A DNA stretch of 64,000 bases, taken from NCBI GenBank assembly GCA_948442695.1, contig CAOJSF010000001.1, forward strand, positions 73,342 to 137,341, written 5' to 3'. The notes under the pieces were generated by a model that made no database searches, was not told the origin of the DNA, and saw only the letters and a list, made by a program, of their open reading frames with translations. Position numbers and translations under genes: made by a program. The first letter of the stretch is position 1; the number at the start of each line of letters is the position of its first letter. The DNA comes from an uncultured Clostridia bacterium (GTDB taxonomy: Bacteria; Bacillota; Clostridia; Christensenellales; UBA1242). Positions 5,229-17,570 of this stretch are shown piece after piece.

Positions 5229-5303
5229 GTTCCCATAGTAAAGTGGATATTACAAACCCCTCCTAAGGGTTAGTCACAGGTTCGAGTCCTGTTGGGAACA
5301 CCA
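5229..5303 (+). tRNA. tRNA-Arg(CCT), copy 1
   Basis: Hand-folded cloverleaf: acceptor GTTCCCA/TGGGAAC, D stem GTAA/TTAC, anticodon stem AACCC/GGGTT with loop CTCCTAA, T arm ACAGG-TTCGAGT-CCTGT, and an encoded CCA. Confidence 0.8.
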
Positions 5304-5307
5304 AAAT

Positions 5308-5340
5308 AAAAACGGTCATGGTTATCATGTCCGTTTTTTT
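5308..5340 (+). terminator. Terminator after tRNA-Arg copy 1
   Basis: AACGGTCATG / CATGTCCGTT hairpin followed by a T-run. Confidence 0.65.
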
Positions 5341-5366
5341 AAGTGTAAAAGGATAATGAACCAAAC

Positions 5367-5460
5367 GAGCGTTTTCTTTAGATACGCAAGAACAACGCGA
5401 AGAATTTGAGCGTTTTCTTTAGATACGCAAGAACAACGCGAAGAATTTGAGCGTTTTCTT
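5367..5460. repeat. 41-bp tandem repeat, about 2.3 copies
   Basis: The unit GAGCGTTTTCTTTAGATACGCAAGAACAACGCGAAGAATTT is repeated perfectly at 5367-5407 and 5408-5448, followed by a partial third copy. Confidence 0.9.
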
Positions 5461-5473
5461 ATATCAATATCGT

Positions 5474-6517
5474 TTAAAATTTAATAATTTTGTCAAGTTT
5501 GTCACTAAGGAAACATGCATCAATAAGCTTCATGATTTCGATGGATTGTTGTTTTGTGACTAAAGGGGTTGAAGTCCCGTTTATGCATTCGCAAATATTT
5601 TTATAAAAGGCCATTTCATCGCCACAAACGTTGTCAGGAAGGGGAGAATGCTTTATTGAACGGTCAGACAATTTTGTCATTGTTTTTGAGAATCCGTTTC
5701 CCAAGATATTGCTACTATTATCAAAATCTGTATTCAACCTTGTTGCAATGTATCCAGCAAGGTCCCAATTTTTAATAATAGTTGTTGAATTCTCATCATA
5801 CGCAATCCAACGAGGTGTATCGATGAATGTGTTTGTATCAATATTTATATTAAATATTTTGCCAGTGGAAGAAGTTAATATAATTTTTACTCCATCGTCA
5901 ACATCAAATGCTTGTGTATGAGAGAATTTGCAATATAGAGATTTTATGTTTTCGTTGGTTTCTTCTATTATGCAATTTATTTGGTCGAGTAGATGCGCTC
6001 CCCAGTCATAAAGCATCCCGCCGCCGAACTTTCTTTCTCGTCGCCAGCCATCAGGTATACCTCGGCCTCCTACGACAAAGGAATCTAATTGTCGAATATT
6101 AAATTCAGTATTTAAGAGAATACTTTTAATTATTAAAAAATCATTATCAAATCTGCGATTCTGGTGTATAAATAGAAACTTGTTATATTTTTCTGAAGCC
6201 ATATACATTTTTTTTAATTCTTTAAGATTTAAGGCGACTGGTTTTTCGCAAAAAACATGTTTACCTTTTTTCATTGCCTCAATAGAATATTCCATATGCA
6301 GATGGTTTGGCAAAGCAATTAAAACAATTTCTAATTTAGGATCAGCCAGCATTTCTGCATAACTTGAATATGTATTTATGCCGTTTTCTTTAGCCAGATC
6401 ATTTTTCCAATTGCGAATATCATAAATTCCAAGTAAGTTAAAATCTTTAAATTTTTTTATTTCTTTTGCATGCTTTTGTCCCATAAAACCATAGCCGATT
6501 ATTCCAATATTTACCAT
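5474..6517 (-). CDS. Gfo/Idh/MocA family oxidoreductase
   Basis: N-terminal Rossmann IGIIGYGFMGQKHA and the EKP motif (FCEKPVAL). Confidence 0.8.
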   Translation of the reverse strand: MVNIGIIGYGFMGQKHAKEIKKFKDFNLLGIYDIRNWKNDLAKENGINTYSSYAEMLADPKLEIVLIALPNHLHMEYSIEAMKKGKHVFCEKPVALNLKELKKMYMASEKYNKFLFIHQNRRFDNDFLIIKSILLNTEFNIRQLDSFVVGGRGIPDGWRRERKFGGGMLYDWGAHLLDQINCIIEETNENIKSLYCKFSHTQAFDVDDGVKIILTSSTGKIFNINIDTNTFIDTPRWIAYDENSTTIIKNWDLAGYIATRLNTDFDNSSNILGNGFSKTMTKLSDRSIKHSPLPDNVCGDEMAFYKNICECINGTSTPLVTKQQSIEIMKLIDACFLSDKLDKIIKF

Positions 6518-6632
6518 AATTTTTCTCCTATAAAAATGATAATATGTTTTGTTTAAAAAGTCAAATTCTTGTAATGCAACATTGACATTATAATAAATAG
6601 GAAAGAAAAGTGTACGTGATAAAGGAGGCTTT

Positions 6633-7274
6633 TTGGATATAGAATCAATAAAATCCTTTATTGAAAAATCTGAAAGAACTTTTAATGTATGGTTAAGGTG
6701 TGATGATATCGGATTTTATACTGAAAATTTTGTAAAACTAGACCAAATGGTAAGTCAGTTTAAAGTACCATCTGTTTACGCTGTAATTCCTATTCAATTA
6801 GAGGAACAAACGGCGGATACGATAAGAGCAAATGCAAGTGTAATAGTTTCGCAACATGGATTTAACCATGAAAATAATAGCAAAAATTTGCCTTGCGAAC
6901 TTATAAATGATAAATGTTTATATGAGAATGTGCTTGTAAATAAAACCAAGTTAGAAAAAGAATTTTCAAGTCAATTTATGAGCATGTTGACACCGCCTTT
7001 TAACAGCATCGATGTCATGATGTCAGATTTATTAAAAAAACATTTCGTAGTTATATCAACTTTTTTAGATAATAGGACAACATTTGAGAGGTCTGTTAGC
7101 CCGAATGTAGAATTAATTAATTGGAAACTTGAAGAAGAGTTTACAAGTGAAGAATTTGTAAATTTACAAATATACAAACGAATTACAGAAGGTAGAGATA
7201 TTGGAATATGCGTACATTGTGAGAAATTGGGAGAATTAGGTTTTAAATATCTAAATAATTTGCTTTCAAACTAA
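6633..7274 (+). CDS. Hypothetical protein, possibly a divergent polysaccharide deacetylase (DUF2334/NodB-like)
   Basis: LRCDDIG ... AVIP ... QHGFNHEN pattern. TTG start after AAAGGAGG. Confidence 0.35.
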   Translation: MDIESIKSFIEKSERTFNVWLRCDDIGFYTENFVKLDQMVSQFKVPSVYAVIPIQLEEQTADTIRANASVIVSQHGFNHENNSKNLPCELINDKCLYENVLVNKTKLEKEFSSQFMSMLTPPFNSIDVMMSDLLKKHFVVISTFLDNRTTFERSVSPNVELINWKLEEEFTSEEFVNLQIYKRITEGRDIGICVHCEKLGELGFKYLNNLLSN

Positions 7275-7340
7275 AGTCATGTAAGAATATACGTTTTTCG
7301 CTGTCCTGGTTAAAAAATAAAATAGACAATGGAGAGAAAA

Positions 7341-7940
7341 ATGAAACTTAAAAAAAATATAATTATTTTTGGTACAAGCAGAAGCGGAAAAACAACATTG
7401 GCAATAAAGTTATCAAAAAAGATAGGTTATAGCGTGATTATGACAGACCCACTTGTTACAGCATTTGAACAGTCATTTCCGCAATTAAACATAAACCATT
7501 CTAATCATGATGGTCAATCAGTCAAAAATATTCAGGACTTTCTAATGAGCTATCTCAAGTCAAGTAGTGGAAGCTCAAAGTTGAGAAGGGGGCTAAACTA
7601 TATATATGAAGGCGCGTATTTTGATTTAGATGCTTTGCAATCAGAAAAAATACTTGAAAGGTATATTATAATTTATCTTTGTTGTCCGCTTGAAAGTAGT
7701 GATGATTATTATAAAATGCTTAAAACTTTTGATAAAGATACTGACTGGACATATCATGTGTCCGATGAAGAATTAAAAAAATACTGTGATATTTTAAAAG
7801 AAAGTAATGATTATTTCTTGAATGAATTCAAAAGTAGGGGACTAAAATTTTATGATACTTCGGTAAACCGTGATAAAATTTTAGAAGACATTGTTAAAGA
7901 CTTGGAAGTACGCATCGAAAATGATACTTTTTATAAATAA
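7341..7940 (+). CDS. P-loop NTPase / small-molecule or nucleotide kinase-like protein
   Basis: Walker A motif FGTSRSGKTTLA. Start chosen after GGAGAG. Confidence 0.5.
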   Translation: MKLKKNIIIFGTSRSGKTTLAIKLSKKIGYSVIMTDPLVTAFEQSFPQLNINHSNHDGQSVKNIQDFLMSYLKSSSGSSKLRRGLNYIYEGAYFDLDALQSEKILERYIIIYLCCPLESSDDYYKMLKTFDKDTDWTYHVSDEELKKYCDILKESNDYFLNEFKSRGLKFYDTSVNRDKILEDIVKDLEVRIENDTFYK

Positions 7941-8026
7941 TCAAAAAGTTTGAATTATTTGCACTACTTTGATATAATTTAATTGCGGTTATTTAAAGAT
8001 TATAATAACATTAACAGGAGAAAATT

Positions 8027-8458
8027 ATGAAAAAAATTGTGATCGGAGAGAAAATTCCAGATAGAAAGTATGATTTTAGAGAAACTTGCTTTGGTATTTG
8101 CGAGAGAAATGGCAAGATGCTACTTGTTATTAAAAAAGGACAACATTCTTTTATTGGTGGCGGAATTGAAGATGGTGAAACAAAAGAGGAATGTCTAAAA
8201 AGAGAATTTATTGAGGAATCAGGTTATAAAATTACCAGTATAAAAGAACTTATTACTGTTGACTGTTTTTGGCTTGCTGCAGGACAATGGCCACTTGAGT
8301 CGTTAGTAAACTTTTTTGTAGTAGAAGTAGCTGAAGAACATGGTGATCCTTTAGAAGAAGGACATACTGTTGTCGAAGTAGAACTAGATAAGGTTAAAGA
8401 TTTATTGCCTTTGCCATATCACCAAAAGGGTTTGGAAGTTTATTTAGAGAGGAGATAA
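8027..8458 (+). CDS. NUDIX hydrolase
   Basis: Nudix box GGGIEDGETKEECLKREFIEESGY. Confidence 0.8.
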   Translation: MKKIVIGEKIPDRKYDFRETCFGICERNGKMLLVIKKGQHSFIGGGIEDGETKEECLKREFIEESGYKITSIKELITVDCFWLAAGQWPLESLVNFFVVEVAEEHGDPLEEGHTVVEVELDKVKDLLPLPYHQKGLEVYLERR

Positions 8459-8461
8459 TAT

Positions 8462-9298
8462 ATGCAAAAGGTGTTGCCTAAATCTTTAAAAGAACTTGCT
8501 TGCAAAGTTCCACAAAAGAGGCTGAAACAAATTGAAATTCATTTAGCAAATAGTTGCAATTTAAGATGTAAAGGTTGCGATCATTTTTCTTGCATTTGTG
8601 AAAATGAAAGTTTCAATGAGAAGCAGTTTTATAAAGACATACAAAGGCTGTATTCTATTTTTGATGGGGATATTGAAAAAATTCTCTTGCTTGGTGGAGA
8701 ACCATTGCTAAATAAGAATGTGGACAAATTAATTGATGCAACAGCGAAACTGTTTGTTAATTCTGAAATTGATGTTGTAACTAACGGCACGCTTATTTTA
8801 AGACAAAAGGATAGTTTTTTTGAAAGTTGCAGAAAGAATAATGTGAAAATTGTTATTACTAAATATCCTATTGACTTTGATTATTTAGAGGTGGAGAAAT
8901 TTTTAATAGAAAAAGGTTGTAATTTCGAATACTTTGGAAACACAGGTTATAAAAAGAAAACATCCTATAAAATACCTCTTGATATTAGTGGTAAACAGGA
9001 CGTTGAATTTAATTTTAAAAATTGCTTCTATGCAAATCATTGTGTTCAATTATTTGAGGGGAAAATCTTTACTTGCACACCACCAGCATATATTCAATTT
9101 TTTAATAAGAAATTTAATAGAAATCTAATTATTTCAAAAAATGATTACATAAACATATATGATGATATTACAAAGGATGAGATTTTGCATAGATTAGCTC
9201 AACCAATAGAATTTTGTAAATATTGTAATGTTAAAGAAAGAGTATTTGATTTGGAATGGAGCGTGTCTAATGGAAAAGAAAATGAATGGACAAATTAA
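8462..9298 (+). CDS. Radical SAM protein, function unknown
   Basis: CNLRCKGCDHF cluster motif and a GGEPLL block. Lies 3 nt after the NUDIX gene. Confidence 0.75.
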   Translation: MQKVLPKSLKELACKVPQKRLKQIEIHLANSCNLRCKGCDHFSCICENESFNEKQFYKDIQRLYSIFDGDIEKILLLGGEPLLNKNVDKLIDATAKLFVNSEIDVVTNGTLILRQKDSFFESCRKNNVKIVITKYPIDFDYLEVEKFLIEKGCNFEYFGNTGYKKKTSYKIPLDISGKQDVEFNFKNCFYANHCVQLFEGKIFTCTPPAYIQFFNKKFNRNLIISKNDYINIYDDITKDEILHRLAQPIEFCKYCNVKERVFDLEWSVSNGKENEWTN

Positions 9299-9481
9299 TC
9301 AATCTTGTCCTAAGACAAGAGCGGCATTTTTTGCTTTTACTCCATTCATTTTGTTTTTTGGGTAAGTTTCTTTAAGATAATTAAAAATGTCCTCTTGTAG
9401 GCTCAGTGGAACTCTAATTGCTCCTTTTTGCTTTTGCATTGTTGTAATTAAGTCATAAACGACTTCATGTTCTATAAACAT
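9299..9481 (-). CDS. Small hypothetical protein, possibly a ribbon-helix-helix DNA binder
   Basis: AAGGAG RBS before the ATG. The IRVPLSLQEDIFNYLKE segment looks like a beta-strand plus helix. Confidence 0.3.
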   Translation of the reverse strand: MFIEHEVVYDLITTMQKQKGAIRVPLSLQEDIFNYLKETYPKNKMNGVKAKNAALVLGQD

Positions 9482-9700
9482 ACTAACTCCTTTTAATAAG
9501 AATTAGTAGTCAAATTTTATTCATACTTTTTCATACACTTTTGTTTTAAACTAAAAATTTCGCAAACTTTACACAACATGCAGAAATTGTTTTGCTAATT
9601 TGCACAATTTGTGATAGGATAAATTAAATCAATTTAGGAGAAAAATCGCACGATTTTCAGTTGCTTATTCTCCTAAGGAAATGCACTATCCATATCAAAC

Positions 9701-9714
9701 CACAATATATTGTG
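9701..9714. repeat. Perfect 14-bp palindrome CACAATATATTGTG, copy 1
   Basis: An identical copy lies at 9952-9965 and an imperfect half at 9983-9995. The copies flank tRNA-Arg copy 2. Confidence 0.85.
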
Positions 9715-9755
9715 TTTTTGAGATAAAGCCAAGCATAAATATTGTGCTTTTACAA

Positions 9756-9780
9756 CTTTTGGTATAGTTTTTGGTATAGT
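9756..9780. repeat. GGTATAGT direct repeats, iteron or arm-site like
   Basis: CTTTTGGTATAGTTTTTGGTATAGT. A related cluster lies at 17432-17463 and an inverted pair at 10003-10022. Confidence 0.7.
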
Positions 9781-9868
9781 ATTTTCGTTAAATATGTTCT
9801 TTTCCGTTAAATATTGTGCTATAATTGACCGATAGTGAAGTCATAAAACTACACAAAATTTTCAATTT

Positions 9869-9945
<77 letters not shown>

Positions 9946-9951
9946 GATAAA

Positions 9952-9965
9952 CACAATATATTGTG
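9952..9965. repeat. Perfect 14-bp palindrome CACAATATATTGTG, copy 2
   Basis: Lies 6 nt after the tRNA-Arg copy 2 CCA end. Confidence 0.85.
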
Positions 9966-10231
9966 ATATTTTTAATTTATAACACAATATATAGGAATTT
10001 TAGGTATAGTAATTTACTATACCAATTTTTTTATTAATATTGATGTCTTTCTCTCAAGATTTTAATGAGATCTTGTTCTAGTTCATCGTTTGCCAGTCAA
10101 GTTGTACCATGTATACTTTTTGTTTTTCCATATTAAGCAATCCTCCTAGTTACAAACATAAGCCATAGTATAAAATTCTCTATTTTTGCAATCAGTTATT
10201 AAATCTCGCCTTTCTTCTTCATAATCAGTTA

Positions 10232-10426
10232 CTATAAGAAGAAAGTAACATTCGCCAAACTCTGTAAATTCATGTGTAACTGCATATACTGTTCTTTTTT
10301 AAGTTCTTTTTCAATTTCTTCCCAAGTTTCATAATCATCTAAATGTAACCATTGAGAACCTAAACTTTTTTCGTTATATTCATTGTATGAACCATAATAG
10401 CCTATAATAATATCTATCACTTTCAA
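10232..10426 (-). pseudogene. ArdA-like antirestriction N-terminal fragment (tentative)
   Basis: YYGSYNEYNEKSLGSQWLHLDDYETWEEI resembles the ArdA N-terminal pattern. Downstream reading frames are broken. Confidence 0.3.
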
Positions 10427-11047
10427 CTCCTTTTTAATCTTCTATTGTTTCAAAGTTATCGACATTAACTTTTGTAAATTCAACTCCATATTGAAAATAC
10501 AATTGTTATTTTTATCACTTAATAAATTAAAACCAGTTACATAAATCTTTCTAGTTTTAGTGACTTCAATTGTGACAGTCATTTTCTCTGTGTTGCTATC
10601 TAAAGTATAAAGGTGACATCATATTCACATAAAACAGAGAAAATTCTTTTAAGTAATAATTTTTACTTTCTTTTTTTTTCATACATATTTCATTCTTATT
10701 TTTATTACGCCTTTCGGCAGGGGAAGAGGAGCATTGTTCGGTGAATATTTATCTCTTTAATAATTTTTTTTGCAGGTGTCAACAAAAAAGAAAAAATTGT
10801 TGCGTTGTGATAGGTGAGCGGGATAAAAACAAAAAAGTTAGATATTTCTATCTGACTTAAACATTATTGAATATATTAAGTGACAATTTTTTCCATTGAC
10901 ATAGGCAAGAATTGTGCTACTTTTTTTAATGAATGGCGAAAAATAAGGAGTGATTGAAAAATATTGTTAAATAAAAATTGTCAGTCATTGTTGCTTTTAA
11001 TATATTTATACATATATAATTTGTCATAGTTATAAAAAGGAGTAAAA

Positions 11048-11474
11048 ATGGCAAATGTAGATAAAGTTTTAAAGGAAATGCGAGAAAATGCGATTAAAAA
11101 AGAACAAGAAACAAAAGAAATTAATGAAAAGATTTTACAAGTTCCCGAAAATTTAAGTAACGTTGAAAAGAATGCCTATAAAGAGATAACAATCGCTTAA
11201 AGAAAGTATTTCTTTTCGATTATCACCAATGGATACAGAACTTATTTGGCAATATTGTCAATTAAAAATTATGAGAGATAGGGCATGGAGAGAATACAAT
11301 AAAAATCCAGAGAGATATATTAGAATTGTAACTGGAATATGTAGTGATGGAAAGACGCCAAAGGTTATGGTAAAAGAAAATGAACATTATAAAACACTCA
11401 TAGATTGCAATAAACAACTTGAAAGGATATTGAAAGATTTGAGATTAACGCCAGACATAAGGAGAAAAAAATAG
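11048..11474 (+). pseudogene. Phage terminase small subunit, P27 family, frameshifted
   Basis: A 50-aa N-terminal ORF (11048-11200) and an 81-aa ORF (11229-11474) read colinearly if the frame shifts near 11190. The C-terminus ends LRLTPDIRRKK. Confidence 0.55.
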
Positions 11475-12515
11475 ATGGATAAATTAAAAATTGAATATCT
11501 TGACATAGATAAACTTAATCATTATGCGAATAACTGCAAAATACATACAAAAGAGCAAATTGAGCATATAGCAAATTCAATTAAAGAATTTGGATTTAAT
11601 GACCCGCTTGGAATTGCGGGTAAAGATAATATTGTGCTTGAAGGAAATGGAAGAGTTGAGGCGGCAAAACTTTTAGGAATGACAAACTTGCCTTGCGTTA
11701 GACTTGACCATATGACTAGTGAAGAACAACAAGCATATGTTATTGCTCACAATTCGACAAATATCGAAACGGGATTCGATAGTAAAGTGCTTTTGAATGA
11801 ACTTGATAGATTGCAGGCTAATTTTGACTTTAAAGACTTTGGTGTAAAAAATGAAATGTTTGAAATGGCAGAACGAGATGATTTTTATAAAGATTTTCTT
11901 TCCTTAAAAAAGAAGAAACTTGTAAGAAATGAATTTGAGATGGTAGGAGATTATGATTTGCCTCTTATTAAAAAGCAAGATATTGATATAGAAAAAATAG
12001 AACTGATGAATTTTAATAATACAAAATATAACGATACAAGAAACAAGCATAAAACTATTCAATTTTTTACTTATGATTATAAATTTGATTATGTATATTC
12101 GCATCCTGAGTTCGCGGTAGAAAAGTTAAAACAATATTATTGTTTACTTTCTCCAGATTACAGTTTATATACAGATATGTCTTTATCTTTACAAATAAAA
12201 AATACATTTAAGAATCGCTGGTGTGGAGTTTATTTTCAAAGTTTAGGACTAAGAGTTATCCCAACAATAGAATGGAGTGACGAAAGGAGTTTTAAATTTT
12301 GTTTTGATGGAGTTGAAAAAGGAAGTGTTGTGGCTGTGTCTACATATGGTAAACAAAAAATAGAGGAGGAATTTATGAAAGGTTATAATAAAATGTTGGA
12401 AATTATCAAACCAAGTGATATAATATGTTATGAAAAGCCTTTTCCCAAAATGGGAGGAAAAATAAAAGCATTCCCATATTACCATAATGAATGGAGGGAG
12501 TGCTATGAAATTTAA
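11475..12515 (+). CDS. ParB-like N-terminal domain fused to a DUF4417-like domain
   Basis: N-terminus: IEYLDIDKLNHYANNCKIH ... EGNGRVEAAKLLG (ParB/sulfiredoxin-like). C-terminus: FFTYDYKF ... KNRWCGVYFQSLGLRVIPTIEWS ... VVAVSTYG, paralogous to 16391-17127. Confidence 0.6.
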   Translation: MDKLKIEYLDIDKLNHYANNCKIHTKEQIEHIANSIKEFGFNDPLGIAGKDNIVLEGNGRVEAAKLLGMTNLPCVRLDHMTSEEQQAYVIAHNSTNIETGFDSKVLLNELDRLQANFDFKDFGVKNEMFEMAERDDFYKDFLSLKKKKLVRNEFEMVGDYDLPLIKKQDIDIEKIELMNFNNTKYNDTRNKHKTIQFFTYDYKFDYVYSHPEFAVEKLKQYYCLLSPDYSLYTDMSLSLQIKNTFKNRWCGVYFQSLGLRVIPTIEWSDERSFKFCFDGVEKGSVVAVSTYGKQKIEEEFMKGYNKMLEIIKPSDIICYEKPFPKMGGKIKAFPYYHNEWRECYEI

Positions 12516-12771
12516 TTCGCAATTTTTTGGAGGAGGTGGAAGCTCAAGTGGAGGAAGTTTTAGAGGAAGTGCAAAACCACCTAACACACATCGTCCAAAT
12601 TCAAAATATACTCAATATAAAAATGGTAAAAAACATCAAGAAAGATGGTATGATAAAAATGGTAATCCAAAAAGAGACAGAGATTACACTAATCATGGGA
12701 ACCCCAAACAACACCCAAAAGTTCCTCATGATCACGATTGGAATAATGGGAAAAGAGGGGATTGGTATTAA
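12505..12771 (+). CDS. Small Gly-rich/His-rich protein with a PHDHDW motif, toxin-cassette-like
   Basis: GGAGGGAG RBS. Overlaps the upstream stop by 11 nt. Paralogous to 15259-15561 over QERWYDKNG..DRDY......H.KVPHDHDW. Confidence 0.6.
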   Translation: MKFNSQFFGGGGSSSGGSFRGSAKPPNTHRPNSKYTQYKNGKKHQERWYDKNGNPKRDRDYTNHGNPKQHPKVPHDHDWNNGKRGDWY

Positions 12772-12781
12772 AGGAGAATTT

Positions 12782-13078
12782 ATGAAAGATATGACAAATC
12801 GTTGTAATGAACTTATGAAAAAAGTTGAAAATAAACAAAAACTGACTTATAATGAATTTATTGAGATTATAAGTTATGGACTTGAAATGCAGTTTTATTA
12901 TAAGAAGAGAAAATTTGGTATAACTCATTTTGCGGGTTATGAGTTTTATGAATGGGAAAAGGAAGAAGGTTATCAAAACTATGATACAATAGAGGATTTT
13001 TCGAATAAAATCAATATTGAAGGTTTATTGGTAAAAGATATTTGGGATAATGTTTCACGTGTAAATTTTGCAGATTGA
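12782..13078 (+). CDS. Small immunity-like protein sharing a C-terminal domain with 14303-14776 and 14801-15247
   Basis: AAAGGAG RBS. Shared pattern: EFIE..GE.EF.Y....G ... I.G.LVKDIWD.V. Confidence 0.55.
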   Translation: MKDMTNRCNELMKKVENKQKLTYNEFIEIISYGLEMQFYYKKRKFGITHFAGYEFYEWEKEEGYQNYDTIEDFSNKINIEGLLVKDIWDNVSRVNFAD

Positions 13079-13128
13079 GATTTGACTAAATAGTTTTAAA
13101 TTTAAACATTTTATGTTATAATAAGCCT

Positions 13129-13978
13129 ATGAGTGTAATATATAAACCATGCGGAATGGCGAGAGAATATAGTCCTTATGCTTTGAATTTGTATATAGGG
13201 TGTTCGCACAGGTGCAGGTATTGTTATGCGCCTCACACTTTGCAAAGAAGAGGTGTGGACTATTTTGGAAAGCCAGAGCCACGAAAGGATATTTTAAAGT
13301 TACTTGAAAAAGACCTACAAAAGAATGTATATAAAGATCAGGTGCTTTTGTCGTTTGTTGGAGATGTTTATTGCGATAATGCAGATGATAGCGTAACCAC
13401 AAGAGAGGCTTTGAAACTTCTAAATTTATACAAAGTGCCAGTTGCGGTTCTTTCAAAAGGCGGGAAGAAGATGCTTCGAGATTTGGACATATTTAAAGAA
13501 TTTGGCGATCGCATAACCGTTGGCACAACACTCACATTTTTAGATAATAAGAAAAGCGAAGTTTGGGAGCCGTTTGCGTCTTTGCCAGAAGATAGGCTAT
13601 ATACACTTAAAACCTTGCATGAAAATGGAATAAAAACTTTTGCAAGTTTTGAGCCAACGATTGAACCAGAAGAGAGTTTAAAACTTATTCGAAGAACGCT
13701 TAAAGATAATTCTGTCGACCACTACAAAATAGGGAAAATTAACAATTACAAAAATGAAGACAAGTGGCAAGACTGGGGGAAATATTTACAAGATTGTGTA
13801 GATTTTGTTTCGTCCAACTGGAAAACAAGTTTATTACAAATTTTGTTTAAGAAAACTTGCTCCCGATATTGAACTGACGGAAGCAGAGAAAAATCCCGAT
13901 GAATACATAGTGAGAATTAAAGAAGAAGGGGAACAACTGAGTTTGTTTGATAAGACAAATAAAGATTCAAAAAAATAA
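13129..13978 (+). pseudogene. SplB/COG1533-like radical SAM protein, C-terminus frameshifted
   Basis: YIGCSHRCRYCYA cluster motif. After about 13805 a second frame continues plausibly (RPTGKQVYYKFCLRKLAPDIELTEAEKNPDEY...) to the stop at 13976-13978. Confidence 0.55.
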
Positions 13979-14160
13979 TTAATTTGTTTAATTTTTAATG
14001 TTAATAAAATGGCACTTTTTAGTATAGTTTTATAAAAAAAGTTATTTAAAATTACGAAAAATAATGCCTAAAAGTGCTTAAAAATGCTGAAAATTAGGCA
14101 AAAAACATGTAAAAACACAAGAAAAAGTTCCAAAAAGCCGTTATTGCACAAAAAATATTG

Positions 14161-14206
14161 GACTCCTAAGGGCTAGTCGCAGGTTCGAGTCAGCCTGGGA
14201 ACACCA
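14161..14206 (+). pseudogene. 3' fragment of a tRNA-Arg(CCT) copy-1-like gene (att-like direct repeat)
   Basis: CTCCTAAGGGCTAGTCGCAGGTTCGAGTCAGCCTGGGAACACCA aligns to 5260-5303 with about 38 of 44 matches by hand. The T stem is broken, and the downstream hairpin is also conserved. Confidence 0.75.
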
Positions 14207-14240
14207 AAAAAACGGTCATAGATAATTATGGCCGTTTTTA
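14207..14240. terminator. Hairpin between convergent gene sets, homologous to the terminator at 5308-5340
   Basis: AACGGTCATA / TATGGCCGTT stem flanked by an A-run and a T-run. Confidence 0.6.
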
Positions 14241-14302
14241 CAATTAAGGAGCTAGGAAAATATTATTTTATTTCTTTTCAAAATTTTATATATTCTTGTT
14301 TT

Positions 14303-14776
14303 TTAGTTAAATTCTTGTAAAAAATCCGTATTTATAACTTCTATCCATAGGTCTTTTAGAAGTATACCATTTATATTTGCTTTTTCGGCAAGATCATCAA
14401 TTGATTGATATAATTGTTCTTCGTGAGTGTTTATATTTAATAGCATATCGCATTTTTCAAAATCATTATATAAAATGCCGTATCTGTTGTTACGATAAGT
14501 AAACTCAACTTCACCATAATGTTTATATGCTTCAATAAAATCATCGAAATTGGATAAAACAGCAGATTTGCCTTCTTTAAATTGTTTTTGAGCATTGTTA
14601 AGTGAGGGGATATTTCTTATCCCTGCGATGTCAGGATGCTGAAACGATTCTTCTGATTGTCTCCAGCCACAATTGGGGCAAGCATCTCCATTTCCATATT
14701 CGCTAATTTTAATATTGCTTCCGCATACATTGCACTTTGAAATTTTATTTTTTAAATTTGGATACTTAATTATCAT
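14303..14776 (-). CDS. CPCC-type zinc-ribbon protein with an immunity-like C-terminal domain
   Basis: CNVCGS...GNGDACPNCGW at the N-terminus. The C-terminal domain is paralogous to 12782-13078. Confidence 0.55.
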   Translation of the reverse strand: MIIKYPNLKNKISKCNVCGSNIKISEYGNGDACPNCGWRQSEESFQHPDIAGIRNIPSLNNAQKQFKEGKSAVLSNFDDFIEAYKHYGEVEFTYRNNRYGILYNDFEKCDMLLNINTHEEQLYQSIDDLAEKANINGILLKDLWIEVINTDFLQEFN

Positions 14777-14800
14777 TTTTTCTTCTTTTAAATTAAATTG

Positions 14801-15247
14801 CTACATATATTTTGGATTTTCAACTTTATCCCATATATCTCTGACATATATATCGCCAATTTTTGCGTTTGCAATAAAGTCTTCTTTATCTTTAAAATAA
14901 TTAAGAGTTTTTTTACTGCCAATTTCAATGTTAGCATCTTCGCTAGGCCAAAACAAACTAAAACTATCACCTTTATATTCGAATTCTGTTTCACCATAAA
15001 AATTCAACATATCTAAAAAGTCCTCTAGTGATGGTTTTAATGGTTTGCCCTCAGAAACAAGTTCTCGTGCTTTATTCTCTGAGACAACATTTGGAAACAT
15101 AACATAATCTTCATTGTCACCATTAGTGATTGAATTGTACCAGCCACAATATGGACATTCGCCATTACCACTGCTATCTACCAAAAGAATTTTACCACAA
15201 ACTGAACAGATTTTTTCAATATTTTTTTCAAACGGATTTTTTTTCAT
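14801..15247 (-). CDS. CPCC-type zinc-ribbon protein with an immunity-like C-terminal domain
   Basis: CSVCGK...GNGECPYCGW. The C-terminus reads FLDMLNFYGETEFEYKG...IGDIYVRDIWDKV. GGAGAG RBS before the Met at 15247. Confidence 0.55.
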   Translation of the reverse strand: MKKNPFEKNIEKICSVCGKILLVDSSGNGECPYCGWYNSITNGDNEDYVMFPNVVSENKARELVSEGKPLKPSLEDFLDMLNFYGETEFEYKGDSFSLFWPSEDANIEIGSKKTLNYFKDKEDFIANAKIGDIYVRDIWDKVENPKYM

Positions 15248-15258
15248 ATTCTCTCCAT

Positions 15259-15561
15259 TTAACAATAATCCATATTAATTTCGGGGCCATATTCTTGTCT
15301 TTCTTTTCCTCTAGGTTTTGTATAGTCCCAATAATGATCGTGCGGGAATTTGTGATTATTATGGTCATTTTTATGATCCCAATCTCTATCCCATATAGCC
15401 CATCCATCTGGGCCAAACCATCTTTGCTGAGGTAGTTTTCCTGTTATTTCATCATAGTAGTCGATTCTAATATTAGGCTTTTCACTCCAAATTTGAGGGA
15501 TGTTAGATCTATATGGTCCATACATATCAAACTTTCCACCGCTTGGTTTACACATACCCAT
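15259..15561 (-). CDS. Small His-rich protein with a PHDHYW motif, paralog of 12505-12771
   Basis: AGGAGG RBS. QQRWFGPDG...WDRDWDHKNDHNNHKFPHDHYW. Confidence 0.6.
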   Translation of the reverse strand: MGMCKPSGGKFDMYGPYRSNIPQIWSEKPNIRIDYYDEITGKLPQQRWFGPDGWAIWDRDWDHKNDHNNHKFPHDHYWDYTKPRGKERQEYGPEINMDYC

Positions 15562-15572
15562 TATAACACCTC

Positions 15573-16382
15573 CTAGGGCAAAATTGCAAATTTTTTAGAT
15601 ATAGTTTGTCCACCATTGCCAGTTAAAACAAAACTTAATTGAGAGCCTTCTAAATTCTCTAATTTTAAAGATGTTACAAATTTACCTATTACATTGTATT
15701 TTGTCTTTATTTTATTGTCATCCAAATACCATTCTATTTTGTTCGTAAATAACGAGGTGACTGTTATTATTCCTTGATAGTTATCTACCTCAAGAGATAC
15801 TATCTTTGGAGGGACAACAAAATTGTCTTGACTTGAAGTAATATTAAATAACTTTTTTATGTTTGAATGATTTATTTTATTCCATTCAATCTCTTGATAA
15901 GGGTTGACAATCAATGGTATATTCCTTTCTTTTACTTCAATATTTTTACCACCAAACTTTTCTAAATTTGCAATTATTTTCCACCTGTAAATTTTGTTTC
16001 TTTCATCGTAATTTATCTTTGCTTCTAGTAGGTGATTTATAAAATCAATTTCACTGCATTTGTTTGTTTTAATAAAATGTTCTTTTGCCTGTTTTCCAAA
16101 GCCTAGTCTAACAGAATTTTTGAAGTGTTTTACACCATGACATTTGCTACAAATTGCAATTATGTTTTTACGAGTTTGAGTTTTATGCTGTAAATCAAAC
16201 TCCCAAACTTCGTGTGCATCAAGTTCGTCAGTTTGGTAACCACAAATTTGACATTTATGATTGGCTTTTTGATAGCAGGCAAATCTTAAAGTGTCCCAAT
16301 CTTTCTTTGATAAAGTTTTACTGAAATCATTGTTCCAAGCACCTTTAGGAAGAAGGTCGATTGTTAATTTAAAATTTTCCAT
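15573..16382 (-). CDS. HNH-like zinc-finger nuclease-like protein with an uncharacterised C-terminal domain
   Basis: CQICGYQTDELDAHEVWEF......AICSKCHGVKH (CxxC...HE...CxxCH). Strong AGGAGG RBS. Confidence 0.5.
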   Translation of the reverse strand: MENFKLTIDLLPKGAWNNDFSKTLSKKDWDTLRFACYQKANHKCQICGYQTDELDAHEVWEFDLQHKTQTRKNIIAICSKCHGVKHFKNSVRLGFGKQAKEHFIKTNKCSEIDFINHLLEAKINYDERNKIYRWKIIANLEKFGGKNIEVKERNIPLIVNPYQEIEWNKINHSNIKKLFNITSSQDNFVVPPKIVSLEVDNYQGIITVTSLFTNKIEWYLDDNKIKTKYNVIGKFVTSLKLENLEGSQLSFVLTGNGGQTISKKFAILP

Positions 16383-16390
16383 ATTGCCTC

Positions 16391-17127
16391 CTAAATTTCG
16401 GGATAAAGTTCACCAGCTAAATATTTTTTAGTAAATTCAGTGAGTCCCATTTTTTCAATAAGTTCTTCTTTATTGAAAGGATCGATTGCTTTGATATTTC
16501 CTTTCATTTCAGAAAAAGGCTCACCATAACAAATAATTGCGCTTGGTTTTATCTTTTCCATCATTTTTTCTAACCTTCCATAAAGCCTTTTTTGTTGTCT
16601 TCTCTGGTATAGGTTGATACAGCCACAACACTTACTTCTTCAACTCCATCAAAGCAAAATTCAAAACATCTATAAGATCCCCATGAAATTGTTGGGATTA
16701 CTATCATTCCTTGTTTTTGCCAAAACGCTCCACACCATCTGTTTTTAAAAACGCTATCAATCTGACGTGCAAGCGGCATATCTTTGTAAGTGCTAAATTC
16801 AGGGGTAAGCAGGGCGTAATATTGGTCTAATCTTTCAAGTGCTATTTCAGGTTTTTGATAAACAGTTTCAAAATTCCAATCGTATGTAAAGAAATGTATT
16901 GTTTTATCTTTATTTTCACTATCGTTTAATTTGGTTTTTGTGTAATTCCATAGACTTATCTTGTCTAAGTCTATATTTTGTTTTCTAATGAGTGGCATTC
17001 CATATTTACCACATTTTTCAAACTCGTTTCTTACGAGTCTTTGTTTCTTTTTTCGCTTTTCATCTTCGTAATCAGACACATTGTCTGCAGCAGAAAAAAG
17101 CGAACTTAATTGTTCACTTGTATACAT
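16391..17127 (-). pseudogene. DUF4417-like protein without a ParB domain, 1-nt frameshift near the C-terminus
   Basis: ORF 17127-16570 ends ...GFMEG*. A 57-aa ORF (16564-16391) continues colinearly with the paralog (MMEKIKPSAIICYGEPF vs KMLEIIKPSDIICYEKPF). One missing T at GGTT(T)AG would fuse the two. Confidence 0.6.
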
Positions 17128-17570
17128 ATTTTCTCCTTTAAAAATTTTGCTTACAATATCTGTCGGCTGAGCCATTCCAAATATCTTGCTTTTTTATTTT
17201 TTCAAACAAGAAGAGCCTAAGTTATATAGTTAAACATTATGGGGAATGAATAATGTTAACTAATTCTTAGGTTGTTCATGTTTTGTTTTTAAAATTGTAA
17301 GTTATCCTTTGACAGGGCAAACAATTATTTATTCTTATTATATTATATATTTTTATAAAATGAAAGGAAGAGTTACAAAAATTTAATATGAGAGAGGAGA
17401 TATATTAAAATAATTGATAGTATTATAAACACTTTGGTATAACTTTGGTATAATTTTGGTACAGAAGTTGCTTAAAAATATGAAAATTATTAAATAATAC
17501 TCATAAACATGCTTAAAATTATATAAATTACTGCAAAAAATGAAGAAATTACATAGAAATTAATTTAAAG

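Follow-up and report, generated by a model that had tools for sequence, protein, structure and literature searches.

The toxin domain Ntox24 is an all-beta domain with a conserved tyrosine and two conserved histidines (Y, H, H). It has been found on scaffolds of the type V secretion system (T5SS), the type VII secretion system (T7SS) and the MuF type, but also in apparent toxin-antitoxin (TA) pairs, and is predicted to be a metal-independent RNase (Zhang, de Souza, Anantharaman, Iyer & Aravind 2012, PMC3482391). MuF toxins of temperate phages are encoded beside terminase and portal genes and have been proposed to travel in the phage head (Jamet et al. 2017, PMC5576092). The orphan arrays of Rhs and CdiA loci follow yet another pattern: upstream they are conserved as far as a sharp junction, beyond which variable toxin-core/immunity modules are found. 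Type II TA systems, including the three-gene ones, are tightly coupled operons of small intracellular proteins. We here discuss a locus that has something in common with each of these systems. It lies in a stretch of 64,000 nucleotides (nt) from an uncultured Clostridia bacterium (contig CAOJSF010000001.1 of assembly GCA_948442695.1), which is called the window below and to which all positions refer. Two arms of genes face each other there. In either arm, a gene for a protein with a DUF4417 domain stands ahead of a gene for a small His-rich protein, and the latter is directly followed by a gene of the family phrog_3711.

We read each arm as one copy of a polymorphic toxin-immunity cassette of phage origin and assign to this reading a probability of about 0.65. 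The small His-rich protein would be a stand-alone, all-beta, Ntox24-like toxin, while the product of the gene directly downstream would be the immunity protein that binds and neutralises it. DUF4417, translationally coupled to the toxin, would form the constant part of the locus together with a short leader of the toxin, and recombination would exchange toxin-core/immunity modules onto this constant part. The plus arm, with the order small terminase (TerS)-ParB/DUF4417-toxin-immunity-radical SAM (rSAM), would lie in an old island, at its right-hand end, the island being delimited by a repeat of a tRNA 3' half. A second subtype would be represented by the minus arm (DUF4417-HNH-toxin-immunity-immunity), which has lost one toxin and kept the immunity gene belonging to it. 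The toxin-immunity pair might be retained by addiction, or it might guard against the same toxin arriving from neighbours or phages. What we build on are homology, synteny, gene fusions, cassette swapping and purifying selection, all of them directly observed.

The plus arm starts with open reading frame (ORF) A (11475-12515, plus strand), an intact gene for 346 amino acids (aa) that comprise a ParB-N and a DUF4417 domain. ORF B (12505-12771, plus strand) overlaps A by 11 nt, or by 29 nt if translation begins at the alternative ATG at 12487, and encodes a small, putatively Ntox24-like toxin domain of 88 aa. Ten nt past the stop of B begins ORF C (12782-13078, plus strand), the 98-aa product of which is the putative cognate immunity protein, a member of the phrog_3711 family. 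In the minus arm, the DUF4417 gene, here without ParB, occupies 16391-17175 on the minus strand and is broken into the pieces 16570-17175 and 16391-16564. It is followed, always on the minus strand, by ORF H (15573-16382; HNH endonuclease-like, 269 aa), by ORF G (15259-15561), which encodes the second small Ntox24-like putative toxin with 100 aa, and by ORF F (14801-15247; 148 aa), which starts 11 nt past G and is the putative cognate immunity gene of this toxin. ORF E (14303-14776; 157 aa) comes last and has no adjacent toxin. The proteins encoded by F and E both consist of a CPCC zinc ribbon and an immunity domain.

On pairwise protein comparison, the paralogy of the arm proteins is far above chance: the DUF4417 proteins share 54% identity (E-value 3e-63), toxins B and G 33% (1e-8), C and E 30% (1e-9), and E and F 28% (3e-19). 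ORF calls and these comparisons agree with the positions and the mirror gene order given in the original prediction on this DNA, which had been made from the letters of the sequence. That prediction also spoke of inverted duplicated cassettes. The arms are indeed paralogous and arranged in mirror order, but a recent inverted duplication is ruled out, because the similarity between the arms at the DNA level is confined to a single stretch of 186 nt with 71% identity; the proteins are just 28-54% identical, and the arms match different relatives (the loci L009 and L001 versus the locus L014). The two arms are old, separately evolving copies of a cassette that face each other and are partly decayed.

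The relationship of the small His-rich proteins to toxins emerges from their relatives. B and G match phrog_21033 and the last 60 or so residues of phrog_18811 (annotated as 'toxin', 676 aa). For G, the E-value is 1e-5 with phrog_18811 and 1.4e-23 with the hidden Markov model (HMM) of the family, and its identity to the two toxins of L014, a Clostridia metagenome-assembled genome (MAG), is 43-47%. A profile made from B, G and 12 close relatives was searched against 1.84 billion proteins and yielded, at an E-value of 1e-3 or lower, 1526 cluster representatives. In the longer matches the domain is located at or near the C-terminal end of RHS proteins (P0060, P0013), LXG proteins of type VII secretion (P0072, P0128), Phage_Mu_F proteins (P0092, P0124, P0127), a CdiA-like DUF637 protein (P0056) and a peptidoglycan-binding protein; in some long proteins a membrane-spanning Tox-WTIP tail comes after it. 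Among isolated phages, it forms the C-terminal end of the MuF 'minor capsid protein' in Clostridioides phage phiCDKH02 and of the 676-aa 'toxin' in Paenibacillus larvae Fern-like phages; secreted, membrane-anchored proteins encoded on IMG/VR contigs (130-240 aa) terminate in it as well. The toxin domain is common to proteins with different N-termini, i.e., RHS, LXG, Phage_Mu_F, DUF637, PG_binding and signal-peptide types. The resemblance to toxin-immunity or polymorphic-toxin cassettes that the original prediction had noted is supported by this homology to the C-termini of RHS, LXG, MuF and DUF637 proteins and by the synteny described below.

The Pfam model of Ntox24 (PF15529) is matched by 32 of 74 small members of the family at an E-value of 0.1 or lower (best 1.7e-5), and P0058 reaches 23.7 bits, just below the curated cut-off of 24 bits. 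Because B and G themselves have no match and their relatives match weakly, we treat the B/G family as a divergent sister group of Ntox24 and not as formal members. The AlphaFold model of B is all-beta, with six strands and no helix, at a predicted local distance difference test score (pLDDT) of 81; this agrees with the description of Ntox24. The near-invariant residues of the family are all present in B (R47, G53, D58, D60, H64, H70, P74, H75 and H77) and form, in the small proteins, the conserved motif R...G...DxD...H...H...PHxH. The majority consensus has a tyrosine, too, in a DYT motif, but not in one of the near-invariant columns.

The downstream genes C, E and F encode a common domain of about 75 aa, which corresponds to phrog_3711 ('unknown function' in PHROGs), with E-values of 8e-10 for C and of 2e-10 for both E and F. 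In L001, the toxin is followed by a gene to which C is 64% identical. The original prediction had seen in E and F paralogs of the 98-aa protein C; the shared domain is there, but in E and F it is preceded by a CPCC zinc ribbon at the N-terminus, which is absent from C. The Pfam model of CPCC (PF14206, cut-off 24.5 bits) scores 32.2 bits in E; F stays sub-threshold at 19.5 bits, yet aligns with E throughout. The CPCC profile also matches two solved proteins, 8ey3 and 8ey4 ('Cys_rich_CPCC domain-containing protein'), with an E-value of 1e-4, and chain I of PDB 8ey4 suggests a complex. For the immunity family itself there is no Pfam or NCBIfam model.

How constantly the two families go together was surveyed with HMMs for both of them in 80 loci from different species, which had been retrieved by the toxin motif; 74 of these hold a toxin ORF, and 4943 ORFs were scanned. 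An ORF of the immunity family follows the toxin within 200 nt or less in 70 of the 74 loci, irrespective of toxin architecture and for toxin ORFs ranging from 42 to 1717 aa, although just 79 matches to the immunity family occur among all 4943 ORFs. The same adjacency is seen in five of six viral contigs analysed; the exception, L027, has its immunity ORF about 1.7 kb further downstream. The annotated phages phiCDKH02 and Tadhana likewise have the toxin and then an ORF of the immunity family. At the LXG toxin of L013, the downstream gene was missed by BLASTP with the immunity proteins of the window; the later profile survey found the family after nearly all toxins. Orphan members of the immunity family also stand alone beside housekeeping genes. 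Since it adjoins the toxin in 70 of 74 loci, whatever the size of the latter, the phrog_3711 family behaves as a cognate immunity family does, and immunity is the likely role of this partly CPCC-linked family.

The third partner is DUF4417. ORF A scores 187.5 bits with PF14386 (cut-off 28.9 bits; E-value 2e-55), matches phrog_940 at 5e-77 and has a weak match to ParB_N; its AlphaFold model (pLDDT 88) shows an N-domain that matches the folds of ParB, Noc and sulfiredoxin (ParB CTPase). The DUF4417 protein of the minus arm scores 151.8 bits with PF14386 (1.9e-44). With its roughly 190 aa and many conserved polar residues, the DUF4417 domain looks like an enzyme rather than a chaperone, as far as can be judged from its conservation. 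It is encoded directly upstream of the toxin in 22 of the 74 survey loci and within 5 kb in 4 more. All 22 toxins linked in this way are small (median ORF 122 aa), and their hosts are widely spread: Lachnospiraceae, Erysipelotrichaceae, Bacillales, Ruminococcaceae, Saccharibacteria, a Sphaerochaetaceae MAG, Duodenibacillus and others. Gene orders range from the bare DUF4417-toxin-immunity (L002-L007) to TerS-DUF4417-toxin-immunity-...-CPCC immunity in L001 and TerS-ParB/DUF4417-toxin-CPCC immunity-rSAM remnant in L009. In most loci, the stop of DUF4417 and the start of the toxin overlap by 4-14 nt and, therefore, the two genes should be translationally coupled. A fusion of DUF4417 and toxin by programmed frameshifting was also considered and is ruled out: relative to DUF4417, the toxin is in frame +1 in the window and in frame -1 in L001, and mostly the overlaps are simple ones. 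Absence of a recurrent linkage to DUF4417 had been named in advance as a refutation of the proposed cassette; the refutation fails, for linkage does recur in these 22 of 74 loci, and there are gene fusions as well.

These fusions are of several kinds. In P0018 (L111), DUF4417 and the toxin form one ORF, which is followed by an immunity gene. In P0359, P0369, P0385 and P0386, DUF4417 is fused C-terminally to CPCC plus the immunity domain; an intact toxin gene lies directly upstream of such a fusion in L114 (P0386, 5001-6242), and a frameshifted toxin remnant in L115 (P0359, 5001-6212). In P0356 and P0387 CPCC takes the place of ParB at the N-terminus of DUF4417. The 20 DUF4417-toxin-immunity trios whose flanks were examined have no terminase, portal, capsid or other phage structural gene and no secretion gene within 3.5 kb; they are flanked by housekeeping genes, helix-turn-helix (HTH)/M78 regulators and scattered defence or TA genes (Thoeris, Fic, Phd/YefM). 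Because phage head and packaging genes are missing from the flanks, the trio qualifies as a self-contained small island. Isolated phage genomes have DUF4417 in 492 records, often beside the genome end or the terminase, as in gene 1 of mycobacteriophage D29, and the toxin domain in just 16. On the function of DUF4417, searchable papers contain hints to a ParB-CTPase fusion and to prophage enrichment and nothing further; the same literature holds no description of DUF4417 as a conserved toxin partner, of the fusions, of the immunity family or of the leaders. The partnership with DUF4417 looks like a new form of polymorphic toxin system, whose toxin domain and whose organisation as a locus are of a known kind.

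Exchange of modules can be seen directly when the window is aligned with relatives. The DNA of L009 is 88.8% identical over 10967-12554, a segment that runs from the upstream region through TerS and ParB-DUF4417 into the toxin gene, whose first 50 or so nt encode the leader. From 12555 to 13784 (toxin core, immunity gene and rSAM) no DNA similarity between the two is detectable, and from 13785 to 14206 the identity is again 78%, including the boundary with the tRNA fragment, which is kept in L009. The proteins tell the same story: DUF4417 is 92% identical (ratio of non-synonymous to synonymous substitutions, dN/dS, 0.12), the toxin 48%, and the immunity protein has a different architecture. 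The minus arm finds its counterpart in L014, with 74% DNA identity from DUF4417 through HNH to the toxin start. In that locus, the DUF4417 gene is intact (263 aa) and followed by the HNH gene and two toxin-immunity pairs, and segment 7527-7780 of L014 repeats 6490-6741, i.e., the 3' end of the HNH gene and the toxin start, ahead of the second toxin. This repeat resembles the homology patches for recombination of orphan modules in Rhs and contact-dependent inhibition (CDI) loci. G and F correspond to the second pair of L014, immunity protein F being 39% identical to imm2, which follows tox2. E, which had been noted before as a tandem second immunity-like gene, is 62% identical to imm1 of L014. 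There, imm1 follows its own toxin; as no toxin adjoins E, the latter is to be regarded as an orphan immunity gene.

Polymorphic toxin loci are characterised by just these traits: an upstream part that stays constant, toxin/immunity modules that are exchanged, and orphans. The orphan arrays of Rhs and CdiA share the conserved upstream region, the sharp junction and the variable toxin-core/immunity modules behind it; they also share extra modules that carry a fragment of the upstream constant region, as in L014, and immunity genes without toxin, such as E. Unlike in Rhs and CdiA, however, the constant region is here not the body of the same protein but a separate, coupled gene plus a leader of about 17 aa, and no genes of a secretion system are linked.

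All genes compared with relatives show dN/dS values of 0.09-0.43, i.e., they are under purifying selection, and the coding conservation that the original prediction had proposed to check is thereby confirmed. Within the same 6 kb, three accessory genes are frameshifted: TerS, rSAM and the DUF4417 gene of the minus arm. For the last of these a frameshift had been claimed before; it is a shift of 1 nt near 16568-16572, as judged against the 263-aa homolog of L014, to which the two pieces are 79% and 77% identical. The three frameshifts could be real decay or sequencing errors. B, C, E, F and G are all intact and have retained the near-invariant residues of their families. Intact toxin-immunity ORFs amid decay fit retention by addiction or protection.

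Three conserved N-terminal types are found ahead of the toxin domain in genes linked to DUF4417. The first, MKF(N/K)xQ(F/L)F-GGGG, is that of the plus arm (MKFNSQFF/GGGG in B; window 12505-12560), and a leader of the form MKFxLQ(L/F)F-GG(G/R)G also occurs in the relatives P0002-P0004, P0011, P0023, P0035 and P0140. The second, M(G)CKPSGG together with a C-terminal Cys, is that of the minus arm (MCKPSGG in G), and the third, MKGxxxF...YNxAGSxxV, belongs to other DUF4417-linked toxins. The protease Prp cleaves ribosomal protein L27 of Firmicutes and capsid and scaffold proteins of phage 80alpha at the motif MLxx(D/N)LQ(F/L)F'A (PMC9405229, PMC5744158). The type-1 leader seems to resemble this motif, but Gly replaces Ala after the putative cut; we consider the similarity a lead, not a result. 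In the toxin subtype of the minus arm (15259-15561 in the window; 6720-6989 and 7761-8048 in L014), the start M(G)CKPSGG and the end (D/E)(Y/F)C are conserved. The two Cys residues, one close to either end, may point to a disulfide, to lipidation or to some other processing.

Compared with the Ntox24 systems of Zhang et al., the family discussed here shares the all-beta domain with conserved Tyr and His, the scaffolds that carry it (LXG, RHS, MuF and filamentous-haemagglutinin types), the small immunity gene directly downstream, the stand-alone versions in TA-like pairs, the joint swapping of toxin and immunity and the orphan immunity genes. In contrast, the proteins of the window miss the Pfam model, the immunity genes belong to phrog_3711 with or without CPCC and not to Imm50 or Imm53, the toxin is a separate protein of 88-100 aa and not the end of a large exported one, and the conserved partner DUF4417 is outside the trafficking modes listed in that work (PMC3482391). 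With the MuF toxins the locus shares its phage-borne nature and the neighbourhood of terminase or portal genes; the same domain ends MuF 'minor capsid proteins' (phiCDKH02) and is then followed by an ORF of the immunity family. The travel in the phage head proposed for MuF toxins would also be compatible with the L27/Prp-like leader. Yet MuF (PF04233) is not matched by any protein of this region of the window and is found just in distant relatives, the neighbour is DUF4417 with or without ParB, HNH and TerS, and the majority of the trios are found away from prophages, without head genes in the vicinity.

Several observations weigh against the reading as toxin-immunity cassettes. B and G match neither a Pfam model at an E-value of 0.1 or lower nor an NCBIfam model, and the link to Ntox24 rests on sub-threshold matches of their relatives. 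Foldseek with the toxin model found no significant match in the PDB (best E-value 0.18), and B, G and the family profiles did not retrieve any PDB entry by sequence either. In the BFVD, the model retrieved phage homologs and then, faintly, beta-hairpin repeats of the MORN/YwqK type, whose function is binding and not catalysis. B (88 aa) and G (100 aa) stand alone, without any Pfam, NCBIfam or signal-peptide-like N-terminal domain, and, lacking a recognised secretion or trafficking domain, fall outside the classic definition of a multi-domain exported polymorphic toxin. The immunity family differs from Imm50 and Imm53, those recorded for Ntox24. Foldseek with the full ParB-DUF4417 model yielded ParB-fold matches only, which swamped the DUF4417 domain, and the fusion P0018, known from one contig, might result from misassembly. 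That the domain is toxic, that its partner neutralises it by binding, that it acts as an RNase and what DUF4417 does are, finally, inferred.

What else, then, could the arms be? A possible explanation, which we regard as tentative, is an intracellular three-component TA or abortive-infection module, in which the downstream protein would act as a labile or titratable antitoxin. DUF4417, a phage-derived protein usually encoded beside the terminase/cos region of phages, would sense infection or regulate the response and thereby set the toxin free. The 20 isolated trios with their HTH/M78, Thoeris, Fic and Phd/YefM neighbours would suit such a module, as would the lack of a signal peptide or known trafficking domain in the toxins and the stand-alone Ntox24 domains in apparent TA systems (PMC3482391). 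Several clusters have DUF4417 and the neutralising domain in one protein, just as antitoxins have sensor or DNA-binding domains fused to them, and DUF4417 is common in phages (492 records), often beside the genome end or the terminase. Type II TA systems, moreover, have in common with the locus the small intracellular proteins, the tightly coupled operons, the persistence in decayed mobile elements and a neutraliser that is sometimes fused to another domain. They differ in that the toxin gene comes first here, the neutraliser lacks a DNA-binding domain, the toxin domain is common to exported toxins, and the third gene encodes the DUF4417 domain of about 190 aa. Also, PADLOC-DB 2.0 matches only the ParB N-domain of A (MTase_II, PD-Lambda-5_A) and none of the toxins, the immunity proteins, the HNH protein or the DUF4417 protein of the minus arm. 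The swapping of toxin cores at a conserved leader and the orphan modules are more typical of exported polymorphic toxins, and the same domain sits on exported scaffolds (LXG, RHS, signal-peptide forms of phages). Quite unlikely, in our opinion, is a structural role, with the small His-rich proteins as metal-binding or structural accessories of phage packaging or head assembly, the downstream family as their chaperone or partner, and a merely positional link to DUF4417. TerS, HNH and ParB-DUF4417 are, it is true, genes of phage packaging regions, the leader resembles the Prp/L27 motif of capsid and scaffold proteins, and the fold is weakly MORN-like without a match to a solved enzyme. But the domain terminates LXG (type VII) and RHS proteins, which are unrelated to phage assembly, and secreted, membrane-anchored phage morons; its small partner gene follows it across contexts, trios occur without phage structural genes, and the 492 phage records of DUF4417 almost never carry the module (16 records match). 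Unlikely as well is non-functional debris, i.e., what is left of two prophages or islands in decay, with ORFs that have survived by chance. It would account for the three frameshifts within 6 kb, for the fact that no integrase was identified among the window ORFs scanned against Pfam, and for an att-like tRNA repeat that has diverged to 87% identity; the five toxin and immunity ORFs, however, are all intact with their near-invariant residues, the dN/dS values of the relatives are well below 1, and the gene order is kept across many species.

Within the preferred reading as polymorphic toxin-immunity cassettes, export has to be balanced against intracellular action. The swaps, the leaders and the use of the domain in exported toxins would favour export; the isolated trios and the fusions of DUF4417 with immunity domains would favour action inside the cell. 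A more specific idea, which we consider doubtful, is that DUF4417 represents a so far unrecognised partner or trafficking class of polymorphic toxins and hands the short-leadered toxin, together with TerS or HNH and in some cases with a ParB-CTPase or CPCC domain of its own, to the packaging or head machinery of a phage. The particle would then deliver the toxin to other cells, in the way suggested for MuF toxins. This machinery could be that of the ancestor of the element or of a helper phage, and the isolated trios could be hitch-hikers on resident phages. For DUF4417, a widespread domain of phages and prophages, the association offers a first testable handle on function, be it loading, activating or sensing, and the locus is a candidate for a new mode of toxin deployment or toxin-based defence in Firmicutes of gut and soil.

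The remaining genes of the locus fit into this picture to a variable extent. The P27-family small terminase (TerS) is encoded upstream of A (11048-11474, plus strand) and frameshifted near 11190: by tblastn, residues 1-47 of the TerS of L009 align at 11048-11188 (66%) and residues 50-142, in another frame, at 11193-11471 (91%). The fragment scores a weak 20.4 bits with Terminase_4 against a cut-off of 24.7 bits (PF05119 / TIGR01558), and it is 84-91% identical to proteins of 142-157 aa that carry Terminase_4 matches; intact homologs of this size lie upstream of DUF4417 in L001 and L009.

Behind C, at 13129-13978 on the plus strand, follows a PA0069-like rSAM gene (ORF 13129-13872) with a frameshift near 13820. 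Its matches are Radical_SAM at 1e-10 and NF033668 at 1.6e-22. The product is 55% identical to residues 1-232 of a protein of Dulem virus 36, the C-terminus being encoded in another frame at 13805-13978, and this gene is the sole similarity found when the DNA of isolated phages was compared with the window. As an rSAM gene or remnant also follows the immunity gene in L092 and L009, it is probably an accessory gene of the plus-arm cassette lineage. A system akin to those for ribosomally synthesised and post-translationally modified peptides (RiPPs), in which an rSAM enzyme would act on a small Cys/His peptide, is ruled out: the rSAM is PA0069-like, missing from most cassettes and frameshifted in the window. 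In the complete phage Dulem virus 36 (L119, PP511521.1; 6582-8522), ParB, a 190-aa hypothetical protein and a PA0069-family rSAM are encoded in a row; there is no toxin or immunity gene between ParB and rSAM, and the 190-aa protein is not DUF4417 by HMM.

The HNH-like protein H has a weak match to Pfam HNH and a better one to phrog_5200 (HNH endonuclease, 3e-28). The original prediction had called its gene inserted. An HNH-like gene is indeed present, but a one-off insertion it is not, for the order DUF4417-HNH-toxin-immunity recurs in L014, where the gene in the same position is 60% identical (dN/dS 0.19); the idea of a random homing-endonuclease insertion is thereby weakened.

The window as a whole is a piece of a low-GC (about 30%) bacterial chromosome with ordinary housekeeping functions, among them phosphoketolase, topoisomerase I, isoleucyl-tRNA synthetase, thymidylate kinase, a GreA-like factor and a NUDIX protein, and the 6-kb stretch with both arms looks foreign to it. 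A copy of the 3' half of a tRNA and its terminator (14163-14239, plus strand) is identical in 66 of 76 positions (87%) to 5260-5338. It had been claimed that the arms converge on this element; it does lie between them, and on the side of the plus arm there is also the rSAM gene, which had not been mentioned. The source of the copy is a tRNA at 5229-5303, called Arg-CCT, and the repeat is found 8.9 kb downstream of it. The repeat is probably the att-like right boundary of an old island that holds the plus arm. Other matches to Rfam, apart from tRNA, were not obtained in a scan of the intergenic regions. The putative island would extend from about 5304 to 14162 and contains, in addition to the plus-arm cassette, genes for an oxidoreductase, a kinase-like protein, a NUDIX protein and a radical SAM protein. 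Inside it, at 9869-9945, there is a second tRNA-Arg(CCT). At its left edge, just past the tRNA terminator, 5367-5460 is a perfect tandem repeat of 41 nt in 2.3 copies. The radical-SAM/4Fe-4S gene at 8462-9298, which stands beside the NUDIX and kinase-like genes of the putative island, is unrelated to the rSAM gene of the plus arm.

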